From Promethearchaeota archaeon (GTDB taxonomy: Archaea > Asgardarchaeota > Lokiarchaeia > Sigyniarchaeales > SOKP01), in assembly GCA_019894975.1 (NCBI GenBank), contig JAGXNO010000051.1:1-21098 (forward strand): a stretch of DNA of 21,098 nucleotides. Reading direction: 5' to 3'. Positions 3,431 to 21,098 of this stretch are shown here, piece by piece. Position 1 is the stretch's first letter, and every line of letters starts with the position of its first letter. The notes below the pieces were generated by a model. That model was not told where the DNA came from and did not search any database. It saw only the letters and a list, made by a program, of their open reading frames with translations. A program made the position numbers and the translations under genes.

Positions 3431-3607
3431 TTATGTGTCATAATCTCCTTCGTTGAATAAATCTTCATTTTCGCCCATTTCCTCATCTTCATCATCTTTT
3501 TTATTCCAGTCTCTGTCTTCTTCTTCAGTATTATCTTCTTCGCGATCTCTACTCATCTCATTCCATTTATCAGCTTGGATTTGTTTCTTACCTTTATTTT
3601 TTTTCAT
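3431..3607 (-). CDS. 58-aa microprotein with basic N-terminus and highly acidic body (not in the ORF track)
   Basis: Manual translation, ATG 3607 to TAA 3431: MKKNKGKKQIQADKWNEMSRDREEDNTEEEDRDWNKKDDEDEEMGENEDLFNEGDYDT. Its GAA/GAT periodicity explains the Ser-rich shadow ORF at 3453..3686(+). Confidence 0.75.
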   Translation of the reverse strand: MKKNKGKKQIQADKWNEMSRDREEDNTEEEDRDWNKKDDEDEEMGENEDLFNEGDYDT

Positions 3608-3881
3608 AATAGTATCTCTTAAGTATTTTTCTTATTTGCATATCAAACATCAATTTATTAACTTAAGTATTTGTGTTGTAAATTAAATTGTTTCTAAAAA
3701 TGCTAATTACTCATATTCAACGATTCTTTTCTCTGGATATAGTCAGATATAATTCTTATCACGAATTTAGAAGTAGAATTGAAGTTCTCCTTATTGGCAT
3801 GATGTTTTGTGTGGGTTTGATTTTTCTCTCATTTATTTTTTCCTCCATTTTAAGAGGCACTAGGCTCGAGCCTTTTTAAAT

Positions 3882-3915
3882 TTTGTCCCAGTTTCCCATG
3901 AAATTGGAATGGAAA
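3882..3915. repeat. Degenerate ~34-bp direct repeat, copy 2; overlaps hairpin GTTTCC(C)AT...ATGGAAAC
   Basis: See copy 1. An internal inverted repeat spans 3891-3916, and the 12-bp perfect palindrome AGGCTCGAGCCT lies nearby at 3862-3873. Confidence 0.6.
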
Positions 3916-3927
3916 CCTATCTTTATG

Positions 3928-4152
3928 TCACTGACTTGCTTGATATGCTTTTTCGGCGTAATCTAATAATGTTTCTTTATCTTTCAATTTATCAGATAAA
4001 AAACCCATAAGGATATAATAAGATACTTGTTCATAATGAGAAAGATCTTTCCTTTCCCCGAAGTCTTTTAAAACTTGAGATGCATCATCAAATCTCCCAT
4101 GTTCAATGGATTCCTTTGCATTAACCAATTCTTTTGGTTCTAAATCAGACAT
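3928..4152 (-). pseudogene. Truncated N-terminal fragment of a TPR-like helical repeat protein
   Basis: EPKELVNAKESIEHGRFDDASQVL...LLDYAEKAYQAS resembles the start of the long TPR proteins common in Lokiarchaeia. It stops after 74 aa, and no TPR-like continuation is seen past the TGA. Confidence 0.55.
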
Positions 4153-4179
4153 TTTTATTCGAAAGCTTATGAAAAATTA

Positions 4180-5082
4180 TTAATCTTTATAAAGTGGGGA
4201 TCCTGCTTTCATAAAACGATTCAAATGACGCATTGAGGCTATTATTTTTCCTGTTTCCTTTTCTTCTAATGTAGAATCAAGCCATAAATATTCTGTCTTC
4301 CCAGAGGATCCAATACAAGCGAATTTCCCTTTAGCTACATACGGAACACCTATGAGTGCAGGTCCGTTTATATTCCGGATTTCGGTCGCACCATAGAACG
4401 GAACAGCTTGATATTCGTCAGTAGCTGTATGCGCAAAGCCAAATGCCATTGCCTCAAACATAGCAGTAGGATATATAATGGCGTTTCCCCATGGAGATTT
4501 CTCCTTTCCCTTATAAAACTCCAATTGATCTGTTATTCTTCTTACTCCATCATTGGCGTCGTCTTGTGAAAGTAAAATCTCTTCAGAAGGAAGCTCATCC
4601 CCAACTTTATGTCTTGCCAAAATACGTAATTCCTCGTGTGGACTATTTCTTAGTTTTGCAGCTTGCAAATATGACGGTTCTTTGGGTGAACCTATCGATA
4701 CTGTTCCAGTCATTATTTGTTGCCCGTTTTTTAATTCAGCCCAGGCATTAACTTGCACATCATTAGTTGTAATAGGTAGCATCTCCTCAGTTGTATCGGA
4801 TGGTAATTCAATGATTGCTCTTACTTCTTCTTCATCGACTGTTGCAAACGTGTAATACATACTAACAGCCCCCTGCTCAAACCAGCGATCACCAAATATT
4901 TTTTGAGCTAAAGGTGCGAACATACTTAAGTGTATAGTTCCTTGTATTGTTCCACCACGCATACCAACACTTTTGGCTACACCATCATCATGAATTGATG
5001 TAGTACTAGCCCTAGCAAGATTTTTTGGTGCTCGCCAACCTCCGAACATTTTTCCTTCTTTAATTTCGATATCATCTGTCAT
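4180..5082 (-). CDS. MaoC/hotdog-fold-like protein (possible double hotdog dehydratase)
   Basis: SIHDDGVAKSVGMRGGTIQG resembles the MaoC hydratase motif (IHxDxxxAxxxGxxxxIxxG). The 300-aa length and SPWGNAIIYP in the second half suggest a second hotdog unit. Confidence 0.6.
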   Translation of the reverse strand: MTDDIEIKEGKMFGGWRAPKNLARASTTSIHDDGVAKSVGMRGGTIQGTIHLSMFAPLAQKIFGDRWFEQGAVSMYYTFATVDEEEVRAIIELPSDTTEEMLPITTNDVQVNAWAELKNGQQIMTGTVSIGSPKEPSYLQAAKLRNSPHEELRILARHKVGDELPSEEILLSQDDANDGVRRITDQLEFYKGKEKSPWGNAIIYPTAMFEAMAFGFAHTATDEYQAVPFYGATEIRNINGPALIGVPYVAKGKFACIGSSGKTEYLWLDSTLEEKETGKIIASMRHLNRFMKAGSPLYKD

Positions 5083-5227
5083 ATTACGTTAACCTATTCT
5101 CATTTAAATTTTAAAATTTGATATTACCTCATATCAATATTAAGTTTAAATCTTAAAAAAATTTTTTAAGAAAGAACTCGCAAATGCTCAAAATTTTTAT
5201 ACAAATCATTGAGCACAAATTAATACT

Positions 5228-6402
5228 TCACTGATTATTTTTACTAACTTCTTCCGCTAGTTTTTTCTTTTTTAAGCTCATTCCAAATAGAAATCGAAGG
5301 ATATTAACCTGTCTAATAATCAAAACTAATGCAATAATAATGGCAAAGGATACAGTGCAAATGATAAGGTATTTCAATATGATGACTAAGCTTGTTTGAA
5401 CTACAAAAAAACCAATAATGACCATTATTGTTTGATGAAGTATATAAAATGGCATGACATTATCATTCAGAAACTTTCTTGATTTATGGTTAAAATTGAG
5501 GTGTTTACTTGCCATTCCAAGAATTAATATTAGCCAGCTCCACATATAAGTAATACCAAGAATCCAAAATAAGAAATAATTATAAAAGATTACTGCTACA
5601 ACCCCTACTAATAATGTCGATATAATCCCTACGATCAAAGCAATTCGCCCATGGTTCTCAATAGATTCTTTGAATTGTCTATCAGAAGCTATGAGAAATC
5701 CTATTATGTAGAAAACTAATAAAGAAAAGAGATTATATCCCCCAAATTCACCAAGAATAGAGAGAGGATTAAATAACTGCAGTAGTATTACAGGAATAAT
5801 TAATAAGTAAAGGGAACCAGGTTCTTGAAAAAGGGTGCCATTTTTGAGATTTTCTCAAGATTTTTTTCTTTTCTAAGGTACACAAACAGATTAACAGTTA
5901 TTAGAGAGAAGAGGAAAAGTAAAATTATAAACCATAAATGAAATCCTGCCCATGGAGAATTTCCTCCATAATCATATAATCCATTAAAATATTGAGGGTA
6001 AAATTCAAAGAAAGAACCAGTGAACTCAGAATGGTTTACTCGATCAAGATAGACCTATATAGGAATTTGAGTAAATATAGCAAATAAGAATGGGATCATG
6101 AGACGAACAAATCTTGCTTTGGTATAAAGCTTGGCATTCGCAAAACCTAAAAAGTAGAATGTAGCCATCCCGGAGATTATGAAGAAAAGAGGCATTTCAA
6201 TACCACCTAGGAAAGTGAAAAAAATTGTTATACCTTCATCCGTTACACCATTTTTAATATGCCACTCCCTCTCATCGAAGAATCTTGAACAATGGTAAAT
6301 AAAAACCAATAAGACTGCAATTATTCTCAACCAATCTATATCATAACGTCTTTCAAAATTGGCTTTTTCCATATTTAAAGTTATTTCATTAGAAGATGCC
6401 AT
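5228..6402 (-). pseudogene. Acyltransferase family 3 (OpgC/MdoC-like), disrupted
   Basis: RRYDIDWLRIIAVLLVFIYH, MPLFFIISG, RFVRLMIPF, HLWF and PFYILHQ motifs. In-frame TAG at 6055-6057, after which the same frame continues VYLDRVNHSEFTGSFFEFYPQYF...KISKMA. A 1-nt frameshift near 5828-5836 then leads into LFQEPGSLYLL...GGYNLF...YIIGFLIASD and joins ORF 5228..5638. Confidence 0.88.
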
Positions 6403-12881: not shown

Positions 12882-13343
12882 ATGGCAGTTTTAGAAATCG
12901 GAATTAACTTAGGTACAAAAAAGCTACTTGAAATCAGATATTATTCTTCAACTGACAACGTGTTAGATCCAAAAATCCGTGCTTTATTTCTAAATGGATT
13001 GGAAGATTTTATAAATGAAGTATTTGGAGATGAGATCAACGTTATATCTCTCTCAAATTTTGAAATTATTTGTTATTATAAAATGGTACAATTCTCAATT
13101 AAAGATACAAATGAATTCCTACCATTATTAACCTTTGCTATAATTGAAAAAGGAACAGATCATGATTTTGTGAAACAACATTTAAAGAAGGTTTACTCTC
13201 TTTTTATTGAAAACTATGATCTCAATGAGATTTTTATGAATAAATCTAAATTTTTCAAGGATTTTGAACCTCAAATTACCGAAATTCTTGGAGATCTAAG
13301 ATTTAAATTAGAAGATCGTATCAGAACCCTCTTTAAGGATTAG
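12882..13343 (+). CDS. Standalone longin-like domain protein
   Basis: Pattern fits beta-beta-alpha-beta-beta-beta-alpha-alpha: VLEIGIN / LLEIRYY / DPKIRALFLNGLEDFINEVFG / INVISL / FEIICY / LLTFAII / FVKQHLKKVYSLFIENY / FKDFEPQITEIL. Confidence 0.7.
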   Translation: MAVLEIGINLGTKKLLEIRYYSSTDNVLDPKIRALFLNGLEDFINEVFGDEINVISLSNFEIICYYKMVQFSIKDTNEFLPLLTFAIIEKGTDHDFVKQHLKKVYSLFIENYDLNEIFMNKSKFFKDFEPQITEILGDLRFKLEDRIRTLFKD

Positions 13344-15183: not shown

Positions 15184-17412
15184 TTAATCTTCTTCAAATA
15201 TGCTTTCAACTAATTTGTTATTTTCGTCATCCTTAAAATGAACCAGTGCTCCCGTCCAATCTCTCAATACTTCTCCGTATTTTTGTTCAAATTTTTGTAC
15301 AAATTCTTTCAAAGGAGCTCTCACTTCTGAACTTTCAGTGCCTTTTATGAATAAAGCACCAAAAATTTTACTACCATACTCTAAGAGGATTGTTATATCC
15401 CCGTGGTCAATTTTTTTCAAAACTTCTGTCGACTTTGTCATTTCTTTAACAAATGAAGTAATTGCAGAGAACATACCCGATACAAGGCCAGGATCTTGAA
15501 TTTCATCACTTCGAAAAGCATAATTAAAGACACCTCTTCCATCATCATAAATAATATAAAGTCCTTGCTTTTCGACTTGTTCAAACTTATAGGAATATTC
15601 CGGTTTCCATATTTCTATTGCTCTATTTCTATAGAGATACTTAAGTGTAAAGTAAAATCTCCTCTTCTCATTGTTATCATCAGGTTTAATTTTATTTAAA
15701 AACTGATCCGTTTCCATAGATTTTAGCAAGTCAAGAATTTCTTCCCTCTCATTTTCGGTATCATACCCAACAGCCTCTTCCTTTCGAGATATCAGATAGG
15801 ATGTCTTACCTTGAATATAATCATTGTAACTCGGAAATTCACTAATAGTCGAAAAAACAATCTTTTCCACAAAATCTTCTTCTAATTTTATATTCTTACT
15901 CTTAAACTCTTTACCGACATAATGAATTAGTAAACTCCAAATTATAACATTAAAAATATATCTTGAAAATAGATAAGGTATTGAAAGAATATATGTTACC
16001 CCAACTAATTCTGCGTCAAAAATAGCAGATCTTAGAATAAAAAAATCAAAACCAAAAACTGAGGTAAAACTGGTTTGACCTGTTATCCAAAATTCATCTG
16101 TTTGACCCATAACCCAATTTACTATATCTCCACTTACAAAAACAGAAATTAAAACTAAAATGGGCAAATATATGTAAAATCCGAGTCTGATATTTGTAAT
16201 ATATTTCAACCCACGAGAGATGATGAATCCAATAACCAAAGTTGATACAAGAATATTTGCAAAACCTAAAATTACTAATATTTCAAAATTAATGGAATTC
16301 ACCAAAGTAGGATTGGGAGTTGGGGATATGAAATTCGCTGAATCAATGATTGCTTTATCACTTAACTGTGGAATTATTAGCCCTCCTATCAATAAATAGT
16401 ATAAAAAGTAAGCTGCAATAGCAATTGCGCCATATAAGGCAACATAAGTTTTGTTATTACTCTCCACAGATTTTTCTCGTTTTTGCCTATTTCTCCACCA
16501 ATCAATTAATTTAATAAAAATTAATATTGAAATTGGCTCAAAAACTTTCAGAAATAATATAAAGATTACTGAAGCCATGATGAAATACGCAAAAAAGTAA
16601 ATAATAACCGGTAAAGTGTCAAGTGAATTGCTACTGATATTGTCAGCAACGAAAAGAAGAAGCGATATTATTGATATTGGCACGCCTACAGTATATAAAC
16701 TTTTGTAGGTCTGTTCCCTGACGCGTTCTCCAAAAAATTTCCCTTTTAAGGAGATTTGAGAGCTGAAAAGTAATTCGATACTAAAAATGAACGTAGCAAT
16801 ATAGACAAATAAGATTTCTAAAAACCACCCAAGTGAGCTTTGTAAAGATGCCTCAGTTCCCGAAATTTTGATGATAACTTGTAAAAGATATAATGAAACA
16901 GGTAATAGAACAATTAGTAATTTTAAAATTTCCTTTTCTCTTTTCCAATCGTTTCTGATTAATCCTTCTCGAATTCGTTTTGAAGGGCTTTCTGAAACCT
17001 GATATGCAATAAGGTTTAAGTTATTTTGAATTGTACCTTCTTCCTTTCTTAAACGATTCCATACAATTATCATCGATATAAAGGGTGAAATGAAAAAGAT
17101 GAATGGTAATGTGGCGAAAGGATATGAAGCGAAAGATGTTAATAGTGCCGTAAAATGTGATATAATATACCCAATTCCTAAAGCCAGATCACCTTCTTCT
17201 CCAGATTGCAATTCTAATTCTATTGGGGTATCACGTACCTGAAAAATAATTGGTAACACCCAATAAATTAGATAAAATATCAAGATTCCTGCGTAAATCC
17301 GCAAATACAGGTTCGAAAGAGCTTTTTTTTTAATAAAGAAGTAAGGGAGAAATAAAATTGCAATAGGGATTGAATTAATTATTGTCGTTAAAAGAATATC
17401 TATAAAGGCCAT
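15184..17412 (-). CDS. Polytopic membrane protein (>10 predicted TM) with C-terminal longin domain
   Basis: About 500 aa of successive hydrophobic segments, a soluble linker, then GLYIIYDDGRGVFNYAF..DPGLVSGMFSAITSFVKEMT..LKKIDHGDITILLEYG..IFGALFI..VRAPLKEFVQKFEQKY..LRDWTG, the typical Asgard longin pattern. Confidence 0.85.
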   Translation of the reverse strand: MAFIDILLTTIINSIPIAILFLPYFFIKKKALSNLYLRIYAGILIFYLIYWVLPIIFQVRDTPIELELQSGEEGDLALGIGYIISHFTALLTSFASYPFATLPFIFFISPFISMIIVWNRLRKEEGTIQNNLNLIAYQVSESPSKRIREGLIRNDWKREKEILKLLIVLLPVSLYLLQVIIKISGTEASLQSSLGWFLEILFVYIATFIFSIELLFSSQISLKGKFFGERVREQTYKSLYTVGVPISIISLLLFVADNISSNSLDTLPVIIYFFAYFIMASVIFILFLKVFEPISILIFIKLIDWWRNRQKREKSVESNNKTYVALYGAIAIAAYFLYYLLIGGLIIPQLSDKAIIDSANFISPTPNPTLVNSINFEILVILGFANILVSTLVIGFIISRGLKYITNIRLGFYIYLPILVLISVFVSGDIVNWVMGQTDEFWITGQTSFTSVFGFDFFILRSAIFDAELVGVTYILSIPYLFSRYIFNVIIWSLLIHYVGKEFKSKNIKLEEDFVEKIVFSTISEFPSYNDYIQGKTSYLISRKEEAVGYDTENEREEILDLLKSMETDQFLNKIKPDDNNEKRRFYFTLKYLYRNRAIEIWKPEYSYKFEQVEKQGLYIIYDDGRGVFNYAFRSDEIQDPGLVSGMFSAITSFVKEMTKSTEVLKKIDHGDITILLEYGSKIFGALFIKGTESSEVRAPLKEFVQKFEQKYGEVLRDWTGALVHFKDDENNKLVESIFEED

Positions 17413-17517
17413 AATTATCGTAACTATTTTTTTTTATTATTTTGAATTTATTTAAAATCAATGTATGTAAATTTAATTATAATAATTTAGGTATTTTTCA
17501 GATATTTAATTTGTAGT

Positions 17518-18615
17518 ATGCCAGCAATTAATAAAATTGGATTAATAATTGATGAAGATTTTTCTTCAAAAAACATCCCACCTTACCCGCATCCTACTTT
17601 TCTTTCATATGAAACCCCTCTTCGTATACAGTCAATTTTGGATTTACTTGAAATAAATAGAATTTTTGTAAATGAAAGAATTACTAAAATAAAGCCTGCC
17701 TTCATAGACGAAGTAGTGTTAAATTTAGCACATACAACCTATCATATTGAGTCTATTAAGAATTTTTCAAATAGGGGCTATGGAATACTTGGGGATGAGG
17801 TCTTTATTACTGAAGATACATACGAACTAGCAAAAAAAGCAGTAGGGGGAGCAATACAGGCAATTAAAAGTATCTTGGATTCTGATGTTAATCAATCTTT
17901 TGCATTGATTAGACCTCCTGGCCATCATGCTTTGCAAGAAAAGCCTTCAGGTCTTTGTATTTTTAATAATATTGCTAATGCGATAATGTATTTGAGGAAA
18001 AAAATCAATTATAATGAGAAGATCGCCATAATAGATATTGATGCTCATTTTGGGGATGGATTAGTACAATATTTCTATAATGATCCAAGTGTTCTTTATT
18101 TCTCTGTTCACGAATTTGATTTTGTTGAAGGTGATTTAGGATTTATTGATGAATTAGGGGAAGGAGAGGGCCTTGGTACGAGTGTCAATTTTCCTATGCC
18201 TTTAGGGATTTCGGATGTTGAGTTCTTAGAATTTATGGATGTATTAGAGCCTATATTAAATGAATTCAATCCCGATTTAATAATAATTGCTGCTGGGTTT
18301 GACATGTATTTTTCTGATCCTATAGGGAATGCTTTTTTAACTTCAGATTCCTATTATAGATTTACTCAAAAAATATTGAAAATTTCTGAAAACATTTGTG
18401 AAAGCAAATTAGGGTTCATTCTAGAAGGGGGATATAGCTTAATTGGTCTTCCACAGTGTGTTTACGCGGTTATACAAGCTCTTTTAGGAGAAGAATATGA
18501 AGCCCCCAATTTTGAGAAGTTTCATCTTTCGAGTGAAACCAAGATTGATGAAGTGAGAAAAATTAAAATTTCGTTAAAAAAATTGCTAGCAAATTACTGG
18601 AGTTGCTTCAAATAA
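17518..18615 (+). CDS. Zn-dependent histone deacetylase family protein (HDAC/AcuC/APAH superfamily)
   Basis: ETPLRI, RPPGHHA, GLCIFNN, DIDAHFGDG, SVH, AAGFD, LEGGY. Confidence 0.95.
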   Translation: MPAINKIGLIIDEDFSSKNIPPYPHPTFLSYETPLRIQSILDLLEINRIFVNERITKIKPAFIDEVVLNLAHTTYHIESIKNFSNRGYGILGDEVFITEDTYELAKKAVGGAIQAIKSILDSDVNQSFALIRPPGHHALQEKPSGLCIFNNIANAIMYLRKKINYNEKIAIIDIDAHFGDGLVQYFYNDPSVLYFSVHEFDFVEGDLGFIDELGEGEGLGTSVNFPMPLGISDVEFLEFMDVLEPILNEFNPDLIIIAAGFDMYFSDPIGNAFLTSDSYYRFTQKILKISENICESKLGFILEGGYSLIGLPQCVYAVIQALLGEEYEAPNFEKFHLSSETKIDEVRKIKISLKKLLANYWSCFK

Positions 18616-18632
18616 TAAAAAATTAGTAGAAT

Positions 18633-19034
18633 TTAAACCAGATTTTCAAGCTTCTTAGCATAATCTTGAACGTTAAAGAGAGCATCTCTTGGGCCTACTT
18701 GGGGGTTAATATATGCAATTATTGCTCCAGTCCCACCAATAGGAATTGGGCAAATAATAATATGACCCTTTCCGGTAATACTTGTACCAATTTTTCGTTC
18801 TTCCGTATTTTCTACAATCATATATTTAATACCTAGAATAGTCAAGCTAGAAATTCCCTTTTGGCCCAATTCTAACTTAAGGTTCAGCATTTCATTTATT
18901 AAAGCAAGATCGTTCGTAAGATCCCAGTTTGCAGTTTGTGTAATCAACTCTCCAGCTCTGCTAATAATTCCTATTCCAAAAATGTTTTGTTCCTCGTTTA
19001 ATAAGTCATCAATAATACTTTCTATTTCAGACAT
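18633..19034 (-). CDS. Profilin (Lokiarchaeal profilin-1-like actin regulator)
   Basis: From ATG 19034: MSEIESIIDDLLNEE..GIGIISRAGELITQTANW..GIKYMIVENTEERKIGTSITGKGHIIICPIPIGGTGAIIAYINPQVGPRDALFNVQDYAKKL. This closely matches the Loki profilin-1 sequence as I recall it. Confidence 0.93.
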   Translation of the reverse strand: MSEIESIIDDLLNEEQNIFGIGIISRAGELITQTANWDLTNDLALINEMLNLKLELGQKGISSLTILGIKYMIVENTEERKIGTSITGKGHIIICPIPIGGTGAIIAYINPQVGPRDALFNVQDYAKKLENLV

Positions 19035-19141
19035 GATACCCAAATATTTATTATTAAATTGTTATAAATAAAATAAATACTAACAATTATAAATTTAAAC
19101 ATAAACAAAAAACTAATTCAAATAAAAAACGGTGAAAATGA
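19035..19141. promoter_or_regulatory. Divergent AT-rich promoter region shared by profilin and the ABC permease
   Basis: 107-bp gap with TATA-like TTATAAAT and TTTAAA elements, and a GGTGA SD-like motif at 19131-19135 before TTG 19142. Confidence 0.5.
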
Positions 19142-19684
19142 TTGGCATTTAGAATGTGGAGAAAAGCTATTTTACTCTCTTTACGTGAAAAAAAAGTATT
19201 TACAGTTTTTACACTAATTTATACAACGTTGATATTTTTAACGTCTTTTTTCATAAACCTAGGATTTCAAGGTGATTTGGGAGAATTGGCTATTCCACTT
19301 ATATTGATATTTTTTGGAACATCTTTATTTCTTTCTTTACTCTACGCATGGATTTTAGTATCAAGAAAGAGACGTGTTTGGGCAACGTTCAAATGTATCG
19401 GGTATACAAATAAAAATATATTAGTTTTAGTTTCAGGAATGATATTTTTTACAACTCTAGTTGGTTTCTTTATTGTAATTGAAGTTTTATTCCATTTCGC
19501 TGCAGCTATTGCGTATCTTAATCAAACGGATTTAGATTTGACTCTTACCATATTAGTTGATTTAGGTCCTGTCATCTTTACAAGTGTTATTTTTATTGTG
19601 GTTCAATTATTTGCTTTCTACTTAGCGTATAGAAAAGTCCTTAAAGTGAGACCAATTATTGCATTAAAAAAAGTAGGTGAGTGA
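19142..19684 (+). CDS. Minimal FtsX/MacB-type (type VII ABC) permease, 4 TM, no extracellular domain
   Basis: Amphipathic N-terminus (MWRKAILLSLREKK), coupling-helix motif RKRRVWATFKCIGYTNKNI (cf. RRREIAxLKALGAxxxxI) and C-terminal RKVLKVRPIIAL. Confidence 0.82.
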   Translation: MAFRMWRKAILLSLREKKVFTVFTLIYTTLIFLTSFFINLGFQGDLGELAIPLILIFFGTSLFLSLLYAWILVSRKRRVWATFKCIGYTNKNILVLVSGMIFFTTLVGFFIVIEVLFHFAAAIAYLNQTDLDLTLTILVDLGPVIFTSVIFIVVQLFAFYLAYRKVLKVRPIIALKKVGE

Positions 19685-19695
19685 GGAGAAAAAGC

Positions 19696-20385
19696 ATGTC
19701 AGCAGATAAAGATGTAATGATTGAAGCGATTGATGTTAATAAAGAGTATAGGAGAGCAGGTGCAATTATTCGAGCTTTAGCAGATGTTAATTTGAAAATA
19801 AAATCTGGTGAATTCGTTGTTGTTCAAGGGCCAACTGGTTGTGGAAAATCTACCCTTCTTAATGTTCTCTCAGGATTAGATTTACCTGATTCAGGAAGGA
19901 TAATATTTGATGGGGAGAATATCGCAAGAGCAACTGAAGATAGATTAAGCAAACTTAGACGTCATAAAATCGGTTTTGTGTTTCAGGATTTTAATTTGGT
20001 AAATTCTTTAACAGCGATTGAAAATGTGGAGGCCGTTTTATGGCCCACAGTGCTACGTCAAAAAGAAATTGAAAATAGAGCAATTACTGCCTTAAGGGAT
20101 GTTGATTTACTTGATCGTAAAGACCATTATCCGTCCCAAATGTCTGGTGGTGAGAAACAGAGGTGTGGTATTGCTCGAGCAATTATTCATAGACCACGAG
20201 TCATTTTAGCGGATGAGGCTACTGGTAATTTAGATCCTGAAAGTGAAAAACAGACGATGGCCCTAATAAAGAAAATCAATAAAGAAATGGAAACGACTAT
20301 TATTTTTGTTACCCATAGAGATTTATCTCAGTACGGATCAAAAACAATACGAATGGATAAGGGAAGAATAACGAAAATTCAATAA
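19696..20385 (+). CDS. ABC ATPase, LolD/MacB/FtsE-like (MJ0796-type)
   Basis: Walker A GPTGCGKST, IGFVFQDFNL, MSGGEKQR, ILADEATGNLD, VTH. ATG 19696 is preceded by GAGGAG; the alternative GTG at 19681 overlaps the permease stop. Confidence 0.94.
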   Translation: MSADKDVMIEAIDVNKEYRRAGAIIRALADVNLKIKSGEFVVVQGPTGCGKSTLLNVLSGLDLPDSGRIIFDGENIARATEDRLSKLRRHKIGFVFQDFNLVNSLTAIENVEAVLWPTVLRQKEIENRAITALRDVDLLDRKDHYPSQMSGGEKQRCGIARAIIHRPRVILADEATGNLDPESEKQTMALIKKINKEMETTIIFVTHRDLSQYGSKTIRMDKGRITKIQ

Positions 20386-20446
20386 TTTAATTTTTAAATA
20401 ATTATTTTATCTCATTTTTTTTGTAATAAGGGATTTTATTTGAATA

Positions 20447-20484
20447 AGATATAACAAATGATTTCAATTTCTCTTGTTATATCT
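20447..20484. repeat. Perfect 11-bp inverted repeat AGATATAACAA-N16-TTGTTATATCT
   Basis: Arms at 20447-20457 and 20474-20484, in the intergenic region after the ABC ATPase. Confidence 0.8.
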
Positions 20485-20623
20485 AACCTCAGACCTTAAA
20501 GATACCTTTTTAGCAAATAGTTATGAAAACATAAATATAAATATAAATAAGATCTGAGTTATGATCAAATTACTTAAATTTTTAAATTGTTTAAAAATAT
20601 AAAAGTAGAACAAGGGGATATGA

Positions 20624-21098
20624 ATGGGTTTTAAGCGTGTGTTTTGGTCAGGTGTAGTTGGAATGATAGTTCTAATTCCAATGTCTTGGATTTCTTTTAG
20701 GTTTTTAAATTTAACTGAGGGTTTAACAGGGGGTTTGTTAGAGAACATCGATGATGCATTAAGTATTATTACAGTTCCTGTAATAGAAATTATTGCAGGA
20801 GCATTTATTGGTCTTGCCCTTGTACTCTTATTCCCGATTCATTGGTGTATATATTATCGCCCAGAGGATATTGGATTAGTAATAGCCGTCACAGTTCCCT
20901 GGATTCTATGCTGCGTTATTGCGAGTGGATTATTTGCTCACTCTCCTCGAGGAGGGATCCATACCAGTTTAGCAATAGGAATTGGCTACGCTATAATTCT
21001 TACAGTTGGCTATATCGTCTTAGTAGTAGCTTTACCGATGGGATCTGCAATATTGGATGGACTATTATTAGGGTTAACAGATTTACCCTACCTTGTCG
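20624..21098 (+). CDS. Multi-pass membrane protein, runs off the window end (not in the ORF track)
   Basis: Open from ATG 20624 (GGGGA upstream): MGFKRVFWSGVVGMIVLIPMSWISF...AFIGLALVLLFPIHWCIYYRPEDIGLVIAVTVPWILCCVIASGLFAHSPRGGIHTSLAIGIGYAIIL..., with no stop before 21098. Confidence 0.85.
   Translation, partial: MGFKRVFWSGVVGMIVLIPMSWISFRFLNLTEGLTGGLLENIDDALSIITVPVIEIIAGAFIGLALVLLFPIHWCIYYRPEDIGLVIAVTVPWILCCVIASGLFAHSPRGGIHTSLAIGIGYAIILTVGYIVLVVALPMGSAILDGLLLGLTDLPYLV

Follow-up and report, generated by a model that had tools for sequence, protein, structure and literature searches.

Introduction

Type VII ATP-binding cassette (ABC) systems are thought to work by moving a domain on the outside of the membrane, and bacterial FtsEX, a member of this family, is a mechanotransmitter that acts, among other targets, on EnvC/PcsB/CwlO. 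Bacterial FtsEX also acts on the actin homologue FtsA (PMC7343993), a contact that serves here as an analogy only. In Asgard archaea, Loki profilin-1 and profilin-2 have been reported to bind actin monomers and to modulate polymerisation (PMC8410842), and the same source reports that Loki profilins bind phosphatidylinositol bisphosphate (PIP2) in vitro besides actin (PMC8410842, citing Akil and Robinson 2018). In this work we analyse a stretch of 21,098 bp from a Promethearchaeota archaeon (the window), which is the entire contig C122 of a 3.9-Mb genome in 175 contigs. Among the six genes at positions 15184-21098, a profilin gene (18633..19034, minus strand) stands back to back with a two-gene operon encoding a minimal FtsX-like permease (19142..19684, plus strand) and an ABC ATPase (19681..20385, plus strand).

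An initial annotation of this DNA had proposed that the whole cluster couples the membrane to actin. Our comparison across Asgard genomes retains part of that proposal: the core formed by profilin and FtsX-ABC, usually accompanied by a membrane protein gene, is kept throughout the order, whereas the neighbouring histone deacetylase (HDAC) and transmembrane (TM)-longin genes have repeatedly been lost from the locus. We find the pairing of profilin with the ABC module to be genuine, to extend through the order and to exceed our background estimate. It does not reach beyond that order, it does not form an operon, and a few genomes do without it. We know of no membrane partner of Asgard profilins, and a membrane ATPase module encoded beside the best-characterised Asgard profilin across the order is a concrete candidate that can be tested in two cultured Lokiarchaeia. 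The control of Asgard actin at the membrane bears on the formation of protrusions and on ideas about the origin of eukaryotic membrane remodelling. If the pairing is inherited synteny only, the locus is an ordinary one.

Conservation of the profilin/FtsX-ABC pair

Profilin orthologues were located in 151 genomes of the class, and 40 loci of at most 20 kb each were searched with all proteins of the window; the FtsX gene was located in 301 genomes of the phylum, and the coordinate lists of both genes were then paired. Families, genera, genomes, contigs and loci are referred to below by f, g, G, C and L numbers where they have to be told apart. About 54 genomes of family f1 (genera g1-g9) carry profilin and FtsX as a divergent pair with under 300 bp between them. 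The same holds for all six paired genomes of family f2 (G018, G039, G055, G063, G078 and G079), with a profilin identity of 37-47%, and family f4 (G149) has the pair divergent as in f1. Family f3 presents another order, with FtsX, ABC, profilin and a zinc-ribbon membrane protein gene following each other on one strand (G131 and G091; loci L114, G131:C381 at 3605-6335, and L059), and in a further f3 genome, G140 (L060), profilin is separated from the ABC gene by an inserted 463-amino acid gene of the opposite strand. Since this co-directional order differs from that of the other families, the proximity of profilin and FtsX-ABC has survived rearrangement.

As a background estimate, we sampled the closed f2 genome G055 in twenty 20-kb pieces at even spacing and set them against the genome of the window, counting only pairs in which both genes were matched. 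Adjacency and relative orientation were kept between f1 and f2 for 31 of 72 co-directional pairs (43%), 2 of 17 divergent pairs and 1 of 22 convergent pairs, figures that come from one genome pair and are small. With 2 of 17 divergent pairs kept, the profilin/FtsX junction falls in a small minority, and the retention of two divergent junctions and one convergent junction in f2 genus g15 (L056, L073) is likewise unusual against this control.

The genes on the far side of profilin behave differently from the pair. The HDAC and profilin genes meet tail to tail in the majority of f1 and, within f2, in genera g15 and g18; they are not adjacent in g2 (f1), in g14 and g17 (f2) or in f3. Eight f1 loci are without the TM-longin gene (L037, L038, L045, L050, L051, L064, L065 and L067), and in five genomes lacking it at the locus a search elsewhere matched only the common longin-like domain, with no full-length copy. 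Most f1 genera keep the complete TM-longin/HDAC/profilin/FtsX-ABC arrangement, as does genus g15 of f2 (L056, L073), at 34-47% protein identity. Because HDAC and TM-longin are variable, the stable core consists of profilin and FtsX-ABC, with or without the zinc-ribbon membrane protein. The conserved feature is thus a core of three or four genes, not a five-gene module, and the five-gene arrangement is a family-level state. A gene order kept only in very close relatives, which would have spoken against the initial annotation, is not what we observe for the core, present in four families; the five-gene set is limited to f1 and one f2 genus.

Two genomes carry additional copies. In G044, a 71-amino acid FtsX fragment lies beside profilin (C158:6696-6899) and a full FtsX copy is found at C67:3643-4182; G026 contains two complete profilin/FtsX pairs (C18 and C322), which could reflect a strain mixture or a duplication.

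The shared profilin/FtsX spacer

The divergent spacer between profilin and FtsX is 107 bp long (19035..19141) and is a putative control region, as judged from the alignment of orthologous loci. This alignment also places the true profilin start at the ATG at 19034, where GACAT is kept in all orthologous loci; the open reading frame (ORF) as listed spans 18633-19043. Across 24 aligned f1 loci, the profilin side of the spacer carries an A/T box, AAATATT..TATTATT, adjoining the profilin start; such a position would suit an mRNA with a short leader or none. On the FtsX side, a conserved GGTG, a putative ribosome-binding site, stands before the FtsX start, and ATAAATTTAAA is located some 40 nt ahead of this GGTG. 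The two back-to-back TATA-like A/T boxes look like two core promoters. Within the genus of the window, the profilin/FtsX spacer is 88% identical, as compared with 76-78% for flanking coding DNA and 73% for the TM-longin/HDAC spacer, the latter being no better conserved than coding DNA. The profilin/FtsX spacer is therefore under constraint, which is compatible with co-regulation and no proof of it, given that strong separate promoters could also explain it.

Profilin and the FtsX-ABC module

The profilin of the window matches crystallised Loki profilin-1 (5YED/5YEE) with an E-value of 1.8e-60 and 206 bits over residues 5-136, and 5ZZB with 2.7e-60, in phmmer searches of Protein Data Bank (PDB) sequences. 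It also matches the Odin (5ZZA, 6.5e-10) and Heimdall (7PBH, 0.0028) profilins, and it reaches 21.1 bits with the Pfam Profilin model, under the cut-off of 25. By sequence, it is an orthologue of crystallised Loki profilin-1 and -2. Orthologues are 70-80% identical within the family. Other contigs of the genome carry three additional profilin paralogues, which are far more distant, and three actin-family genes are found on C12, C55 and C137.

The permease has 180 amino acids and four TM helices, and matches PF02687 with 34.1 bits (cut-off 25.5) over residues 54-169. An alignment of 51 rows shows conserved hydrophobic segments and a TM1-TM2 loop that ranges, over the whole set, from a few to some 20 residues; the large extracytoplasmic TM1-TM2 domain typical of type VII ABC permeases is absent. 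Family members measure 166-194 amino acids across Asgard classes, and the relatives recovered in the homologue search were close Asgard ones only, annotated as 'FtsX-like permease family protein'. The ATPase gene follows directly after the FtsX gene in every locus examined, and in the window it overlaps the FtsX stop by 4 bp. Its product, of 234 amino acids and FtsE/LolD/MacB type, matches PF00005 (E 2.8e-34); its best NCBIfam matches are FtsE (199.3 bits, cut-off 264.85) and LolD (199 bits), both under their equivalog cut-offs, followed by DarD, DevA and MacB. On the strength of its permease domain and cognate ATPase, the pair is a type VII ABC system of the MacB/FtsX superfamily in which the outside domain is missing, in agreement with the earlier description of a minimal type VII ABC. 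Identity with FtsEX proper, the cell-division system, was considered and rejected, the FtsE score lying below the equivalog cut-off and the permease having no extracellular domain. Without that domain the module has nothing with which to activate a wall hydrolase, unlike FtsEX, and must act within the membrane or on its cytoplasmic side. A permease2-ATPase2 stoichiometry of the MacB/LolCDE/HrtBA type is expected from knowledge of the family; a joint fold of two FtsX, two ABC ATPase and one profilin chain, each with its own alignment, scored 0.01 against a mark of 0.32 and speaks neither for nor against binding.

The ABC gene is followed in the window by a membrane protein gene (20624..21098, plus strand; 20624-21097 in the ORF listing). 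Because the window is an entire contig, this last gene is cut at the contig end, leaving the N-terminal 158 amino acids, which have no match in Pfam or NCBIfam. Full-length orthologues have about 250 amino acids and end, as in L070:9411-10163, in a Lys-rich linker and a CxxC...CxxC zinc-ribbon tail, a part lost from the window with the end of the contig. This gene stands after the ABC gene in most f1 loci and directly after profilin in f3; its counterpart in genus g15 of f2 is on the opposite strand, at a distance of about 2 kb.

Gene layout, HDAC and TM-longin

The stretch contains six ordinary, intact genes of a Lokiarchaeales genome, all of families already known. Their strands, as well as the gaps of 105 bp (17413-17517), 17 bp (18616-18632) and 107 bp (19035-19141) described in the initial annotation, agree with the ORF listing. 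The assignments to HDAC, profilin, FtsX and ABC ATPase hold in sequence searches, and longin holds as a predicted fold. The statement that the cluster is not a single operon is also borne out, since only FtsX-ABC forms an operon and profilin lies on the opposite strand in the window.

HDAC (17518..18615, plus strand) is a single-domain class-II-type histone deacetylase-like amidohydrolase of 365 amino acids, separated from profilin by a convergent spacer of 17 bp between the stop codons (18616..18632). It matches PF00850 with an E-value of 1.9e-71 (241 bits), and its translation contains the zinc-binding/catalytic motifs PPGHHA, DIDAHFGDG, AAGFD and EGGYS. Its nearest single-domain PDB relatives are bacterial HDAH (178 bits), HDAC10 (165 bits) and the HDAC6 catalytic domains (about 145-150 bits each), and the genome has four or five such paralogues, this one included. 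HDAC6 is a tubulin/cortactin deacetylase with tandem catalytic domains and a ubiquitin-binding zinc finger. We rejected this identity for the window protein, a single domain of 365 amino acids with no tandem catalytic domains and no ZnF-UBP; the high whole-chain HDAC6 scores arise because both HDAC6 domains match, in two stretches. As far as its sequence goes, the enzyme is a generic single-domain class-II deacetylase and not specifically a relative of HDAC6. The analogy with HDAC6 drawn earlier is consequently weak, since the single domain is no more distant from bacterial HDAH and the polyamine deacetylase HDAC10 than from HDAC6.

On the other side of HDAC, across a divergent spacer of 105 bp (17413..17517), lies the TM-longin gene (15184..17412, minus strand), whose product is a polytopic membrane protein of 742 amino acids with a C-terminal region, taken as cytoplasmic, that ends in a longin-like domain (residues 596-742; 15187..15627, minus strand). 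The protein had no sequence match in Pfam, NCBIfam or PDB, and its orthologues are 35-60% identical. An AlphaFold2 model built with 22 orthologues consists chiefly of long helices up to about residue 500, with a predicted local distance difference test (pLDDT) score of 74.8. A Foldseek search of PDB with the whole model returned no match at E <= 0.001, so the membrane part is without a known fold match, which does not by itself show a novel fold. Modelled with an alignment of 55 rows, the C-terminal 147 residues reach a pLDDT of 88.9 and display the topology b-b-a-b-b-b-a-a. Top Foldseek matches of this domain are Mon1-Ccz1, AP sigma, TRAPP and the VAMP7 longin (E 2e-4 to 2e-3), and VIA-align gives Z-scores of 10-13 over domain residues 19-147 with CPLANE, TRAPP, Sec22, VAMP7 and AP mu longins, compared with 9-11 over the first ~100 residues only for roadblock proteins. 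The model thus supports a longin fold for the C-terminal domain, an assignment that, with no Pfam match, rests on the predicted fold.

The longin-like domain is common, with 1683 representatives in a library of 1.8 billion proteins and occurrences in at least 35 ORFs of this genome. These include ORFs on contigs of G000 at C112:2964-7624, C113:634-2928, C123:14984-17041 and C105:38317-40263, and about 30 others; several ORFs of some 650-765 amino acids carry the domain at about the same C-terminal position and are for this reason probably paralogues of the 742-amino acid protein. No GTPase gene is present in the window locus. A 153-amino acid protein (12882-13343, plus strand) was considered as another longin-like copy, a reading that found no support, with a BLASTP E-value of 0.005 over 34 residues and no place among the 35 profile matches. 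It has no family match, is conserved in the genus and adjoins HDAC in L037:11676-12134 and L038:11685-12143, two loci without the TM-longin gene.

FtsX-ABC in other Asgard lineages

The minimal FtsX-ABC operon is present in single copy in 168 of 301 Asgard genomes, including Odinarchaeota LCB_4 (whose profilin matches 5ZZA), a large Thor-like family and several others. In Odin and family f26, the divergent position held by profilin in Lokiarchaeales is occupied by a gene for a Cys-rich protein of 377-434 amino acids (L074:8735-9865, plus; L075:6952-8082, minus; L078:5639-6940, plus; L079:5946-7169, minus). Three of the four members give a sub-threshold match to ARPC4, with a best E-value of 9.7e-5. 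A profile search of PDB sequences with this protein found no Arp2/3 chain, and PF05856, used to check the ARPC4 match, had no match in the genome of the window and none in the control genomes either; the Odin protein itself has only partial domain matches in this genome. We regard the ARPC4-like neighbour as a weak lead suggested by sequence similarity. The C-terminal, zinc-ribbon-like end of the Odin protein, of about 55 residues, recurs as a separate ORF of 68-87 amino acids in nine Thor-like loci (L076:10416-10634, L081:6203-6430, L093:6018-6281 and six more), mostly 1-2 kb past the ABC gene and about 3.8 kb past it in L091.

Thor-like families f12 (L076, L077, L085, L087, L090, L093) and f31 (L086) have a Ras- or Arf-family GTPase gene as the divergent neighbour upstream of FtsX-ABC and a gene for a TPR/SNAP-like protein of 264-279 amino acids downstream. 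The f12 loci further carry a class-II HDAC gene some 6 kb from FtsX-ABC; searched against the genome of the window, it matches the window HDAC best. We treat these lineage-specific neighbours as leads.

Discussion

We propose that the core genes are functionally associated, in the sense of being co-regulated and acting in one process, and assign this reading a probability of roughly 0.45; co-regulation, contact and the direction of signalling are parts of it that we infer. Profilin and the ABC module would each have a promoter in the strongly conserved region of about 100 bp, the two promoters lying back to back, and sharing this spacer could make them co-regulated. Both would act in one membrane-proximal process, with ATP driving a conformational change of the ABC module within the membrane or at its cytoplasmic face, where it might act on the zinc-ribbon membrane protein, and with profilin setting the local supply of polymerisable actin. 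Such a link to the membrane is made plausible by the binding of PIP2 by profilin, by the contact between FtsEX and FtsA and by an ABC module devoid of an outside domain.

Several observations weigh against a functional association. Profilin and FtsX-ABC are divergent, share no common transcript and neither of them is a regulator. Tight linkage is dispensable, as three f1 genomes (G054, G059 and G077) have 1.6-3.3 kb inserted between profilin and FtsX, and in the f2 genome G136 the two genes lie on different contigs. Beyond the order, a jackhmmer search of all ORFs in 20 loci from 10 other Asgard families found no profilin within about 8 kb of FtsX-ABC. In closed genomes the same profile does recover profilins of Odin, f18 and Thor-like archaea, which lie 41-45 kb (f18), about 0.4-1 Mb (Odin) and 0.18-0.46 Mb (Thor-like) from FtsX. 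Comparing profilin neighbourhoods across Asgard archaea, as the initial annotation had suggested, thus shows a pairing kept in four families of one order and absent in Odin, Thor-like and other classes. The divergent neighbours of FtsX-ABC in f18, f15 and f21 are metabolic genes (CoA transferase, ELP3 and argininosuccinate lyase). The thermosome gene (1-606 in the window; also L074, L075, L078 and L115) lies within 2-5 kb of FtsX-ABC in Odin, f26 and f4 and within about 5-18 kb of it in f1, so that the region seems to rearrange slowly. Finally, the genomes compared are related and their counts are not independent events, and the background control covers a single genome pair.

A rival explanation is that the pairing is an adjacency inherited from the ancestor of the order and empty of function, joining unrelated housekeeping genes that stayed together because the region rearranges slowly and two compact promoters fill a short spacer. 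The ABC module would then serve a general membrane function, for instance the extraction or flipping of a hydrophobic compound, here as in the Asgard classes where profilin is elsewhere. The single-copy occurrence of FtsX-ABC across the phylum, with neighbours that differ by class and are in several cases metabolic, fits this explanation, as do the distant profilins of closed Odin and Thor-like genomes and the tolerated insertions and separation. Within the family, the flanking cyclase and thermosome genes are likewise syntenic; the proximity of the thermosome gene hints at an old, slowly decaying synteny around the FtsX-ABC operon, and 43% of co-directional pairs were kept between f1 and f2 in the control. 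Inherited adjacency accounts less readily for a junction of a type kept in only 2 of 17 cases between f1 and f2, which for profilin and FtsX persists in four families, in f3 despite reordering. The spacer is also better conserved than the coding DNA beside it, although strong separate promoters could explain this. We consider this explanation a serious competitor, with a chance somewhat short of even.

The fuller model, in which all five or six genes constitute one membrane-to-actin signalling module, with the longin protein as a receptor or an input resembling a guanine nucleotide exchange factor and HDAC as a deacetylase of cytoskeletal proteins, draws on the complete arrangement in most f1 genera and f2 genus g15, whose junction types were rarely kept in the control, on the support for the longin fold and on the HDAC resembling that of the window about 6 kb from FtsX-ABC in Thor-like loci. 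It is hard to reconcile with the eight f1 loci that lack the TM-longin gene, with the absence of an adjacent HDAC in g2, in f2 g14 and g17 and in f3, and with an HDAC that is generic and has several paralogues; a longin neighbour, moreover, is less telling in a genome with at least 35 longin-like ORFs. We therefore deem the fuller model very unlikely.

There is also a broader, speculative reading, which we hold to be unlikely: the minimal FtsX-ABC module might be an ancestral Asgard membrane-embedded, ATP-driven switch that recruits or regulates the actin machinery at the membrane, its partners being profilin and the zinc-ribbon protein in Lokiarchaeales, an ARPC4-like protein in Odinarchaeia and a small GTPase together with a SNAP/TPR-like protein in Thor-like archaea. 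If true, the FtsX-ABC switch would be a prokaryotic forerunner of membrane-to-actin signalling.

Comparison with known systems

The window profilin can be aligned over its full length with Loki profilin-1 and -2 (5YED/5YEE, 5ZZB), with most aligned positions identical. It differs from them by sequence variation only, and the new part is its genomic context. For the 742-amino acid protein, predicted fold and topology agree with those of longin proteins (VAMP7, Sec22, TRAPP, Mon1-Ccz1, AP mu/sigma and the roadblock-longin 8YQG), but here the domain is fused C-terminally to a polytopic membrane region of about 500 residues. The window HDAC shares with HDAC6, HDAH and HDAC10 the Hist_deacetyl domain and the His-His, Asp-x-His, Asp and Gly-Gly-Tyr motifs, and differs from HDAC6 in scoring higher against bacterial HDAH than against one HDAC6 domain.

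The Loki module has its permease domain family and ATPase subfamily in common with MacB/LolCDE/HrtBA, whose large periplasmic Porter/Sabre domain is wholly absent from the Asgard permease family. Its likeness to bacterial FtsEX lies in an FtsX Pfam domain with four TM helices, an ATPase nearest to FtsE/LolD and a two-gene operon, and its genomic linkage to a regulator of the actin-family cytoskeleton parallels the contact between FtsEX and FtsA (PMC7343993). It departs from FtsEX in having the permease gene first and the ATPase gene second, in a neighbour that is profilin and not an actin homologue, in a host that is an archaeon without peptidoglycan and in an ATPase that does not reach the FtsE equivalog cut-off. 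Our search of the literature on Asgard archaea and Lokiarchaeota returned no description of a profilin-FtsX/ABC pairing or of a four-helix FtsX without an outside domain, and the Lokiarchaeum ossiferum paper treats profilins in general terms only. A type VII ABC permease lacking the outside domain and kept across Asgard classes is an unexplained variant. Set against the described systems, the four-helix FtsX without an outside domain is a new variant, and its fixed pairing with profilin is a new context.

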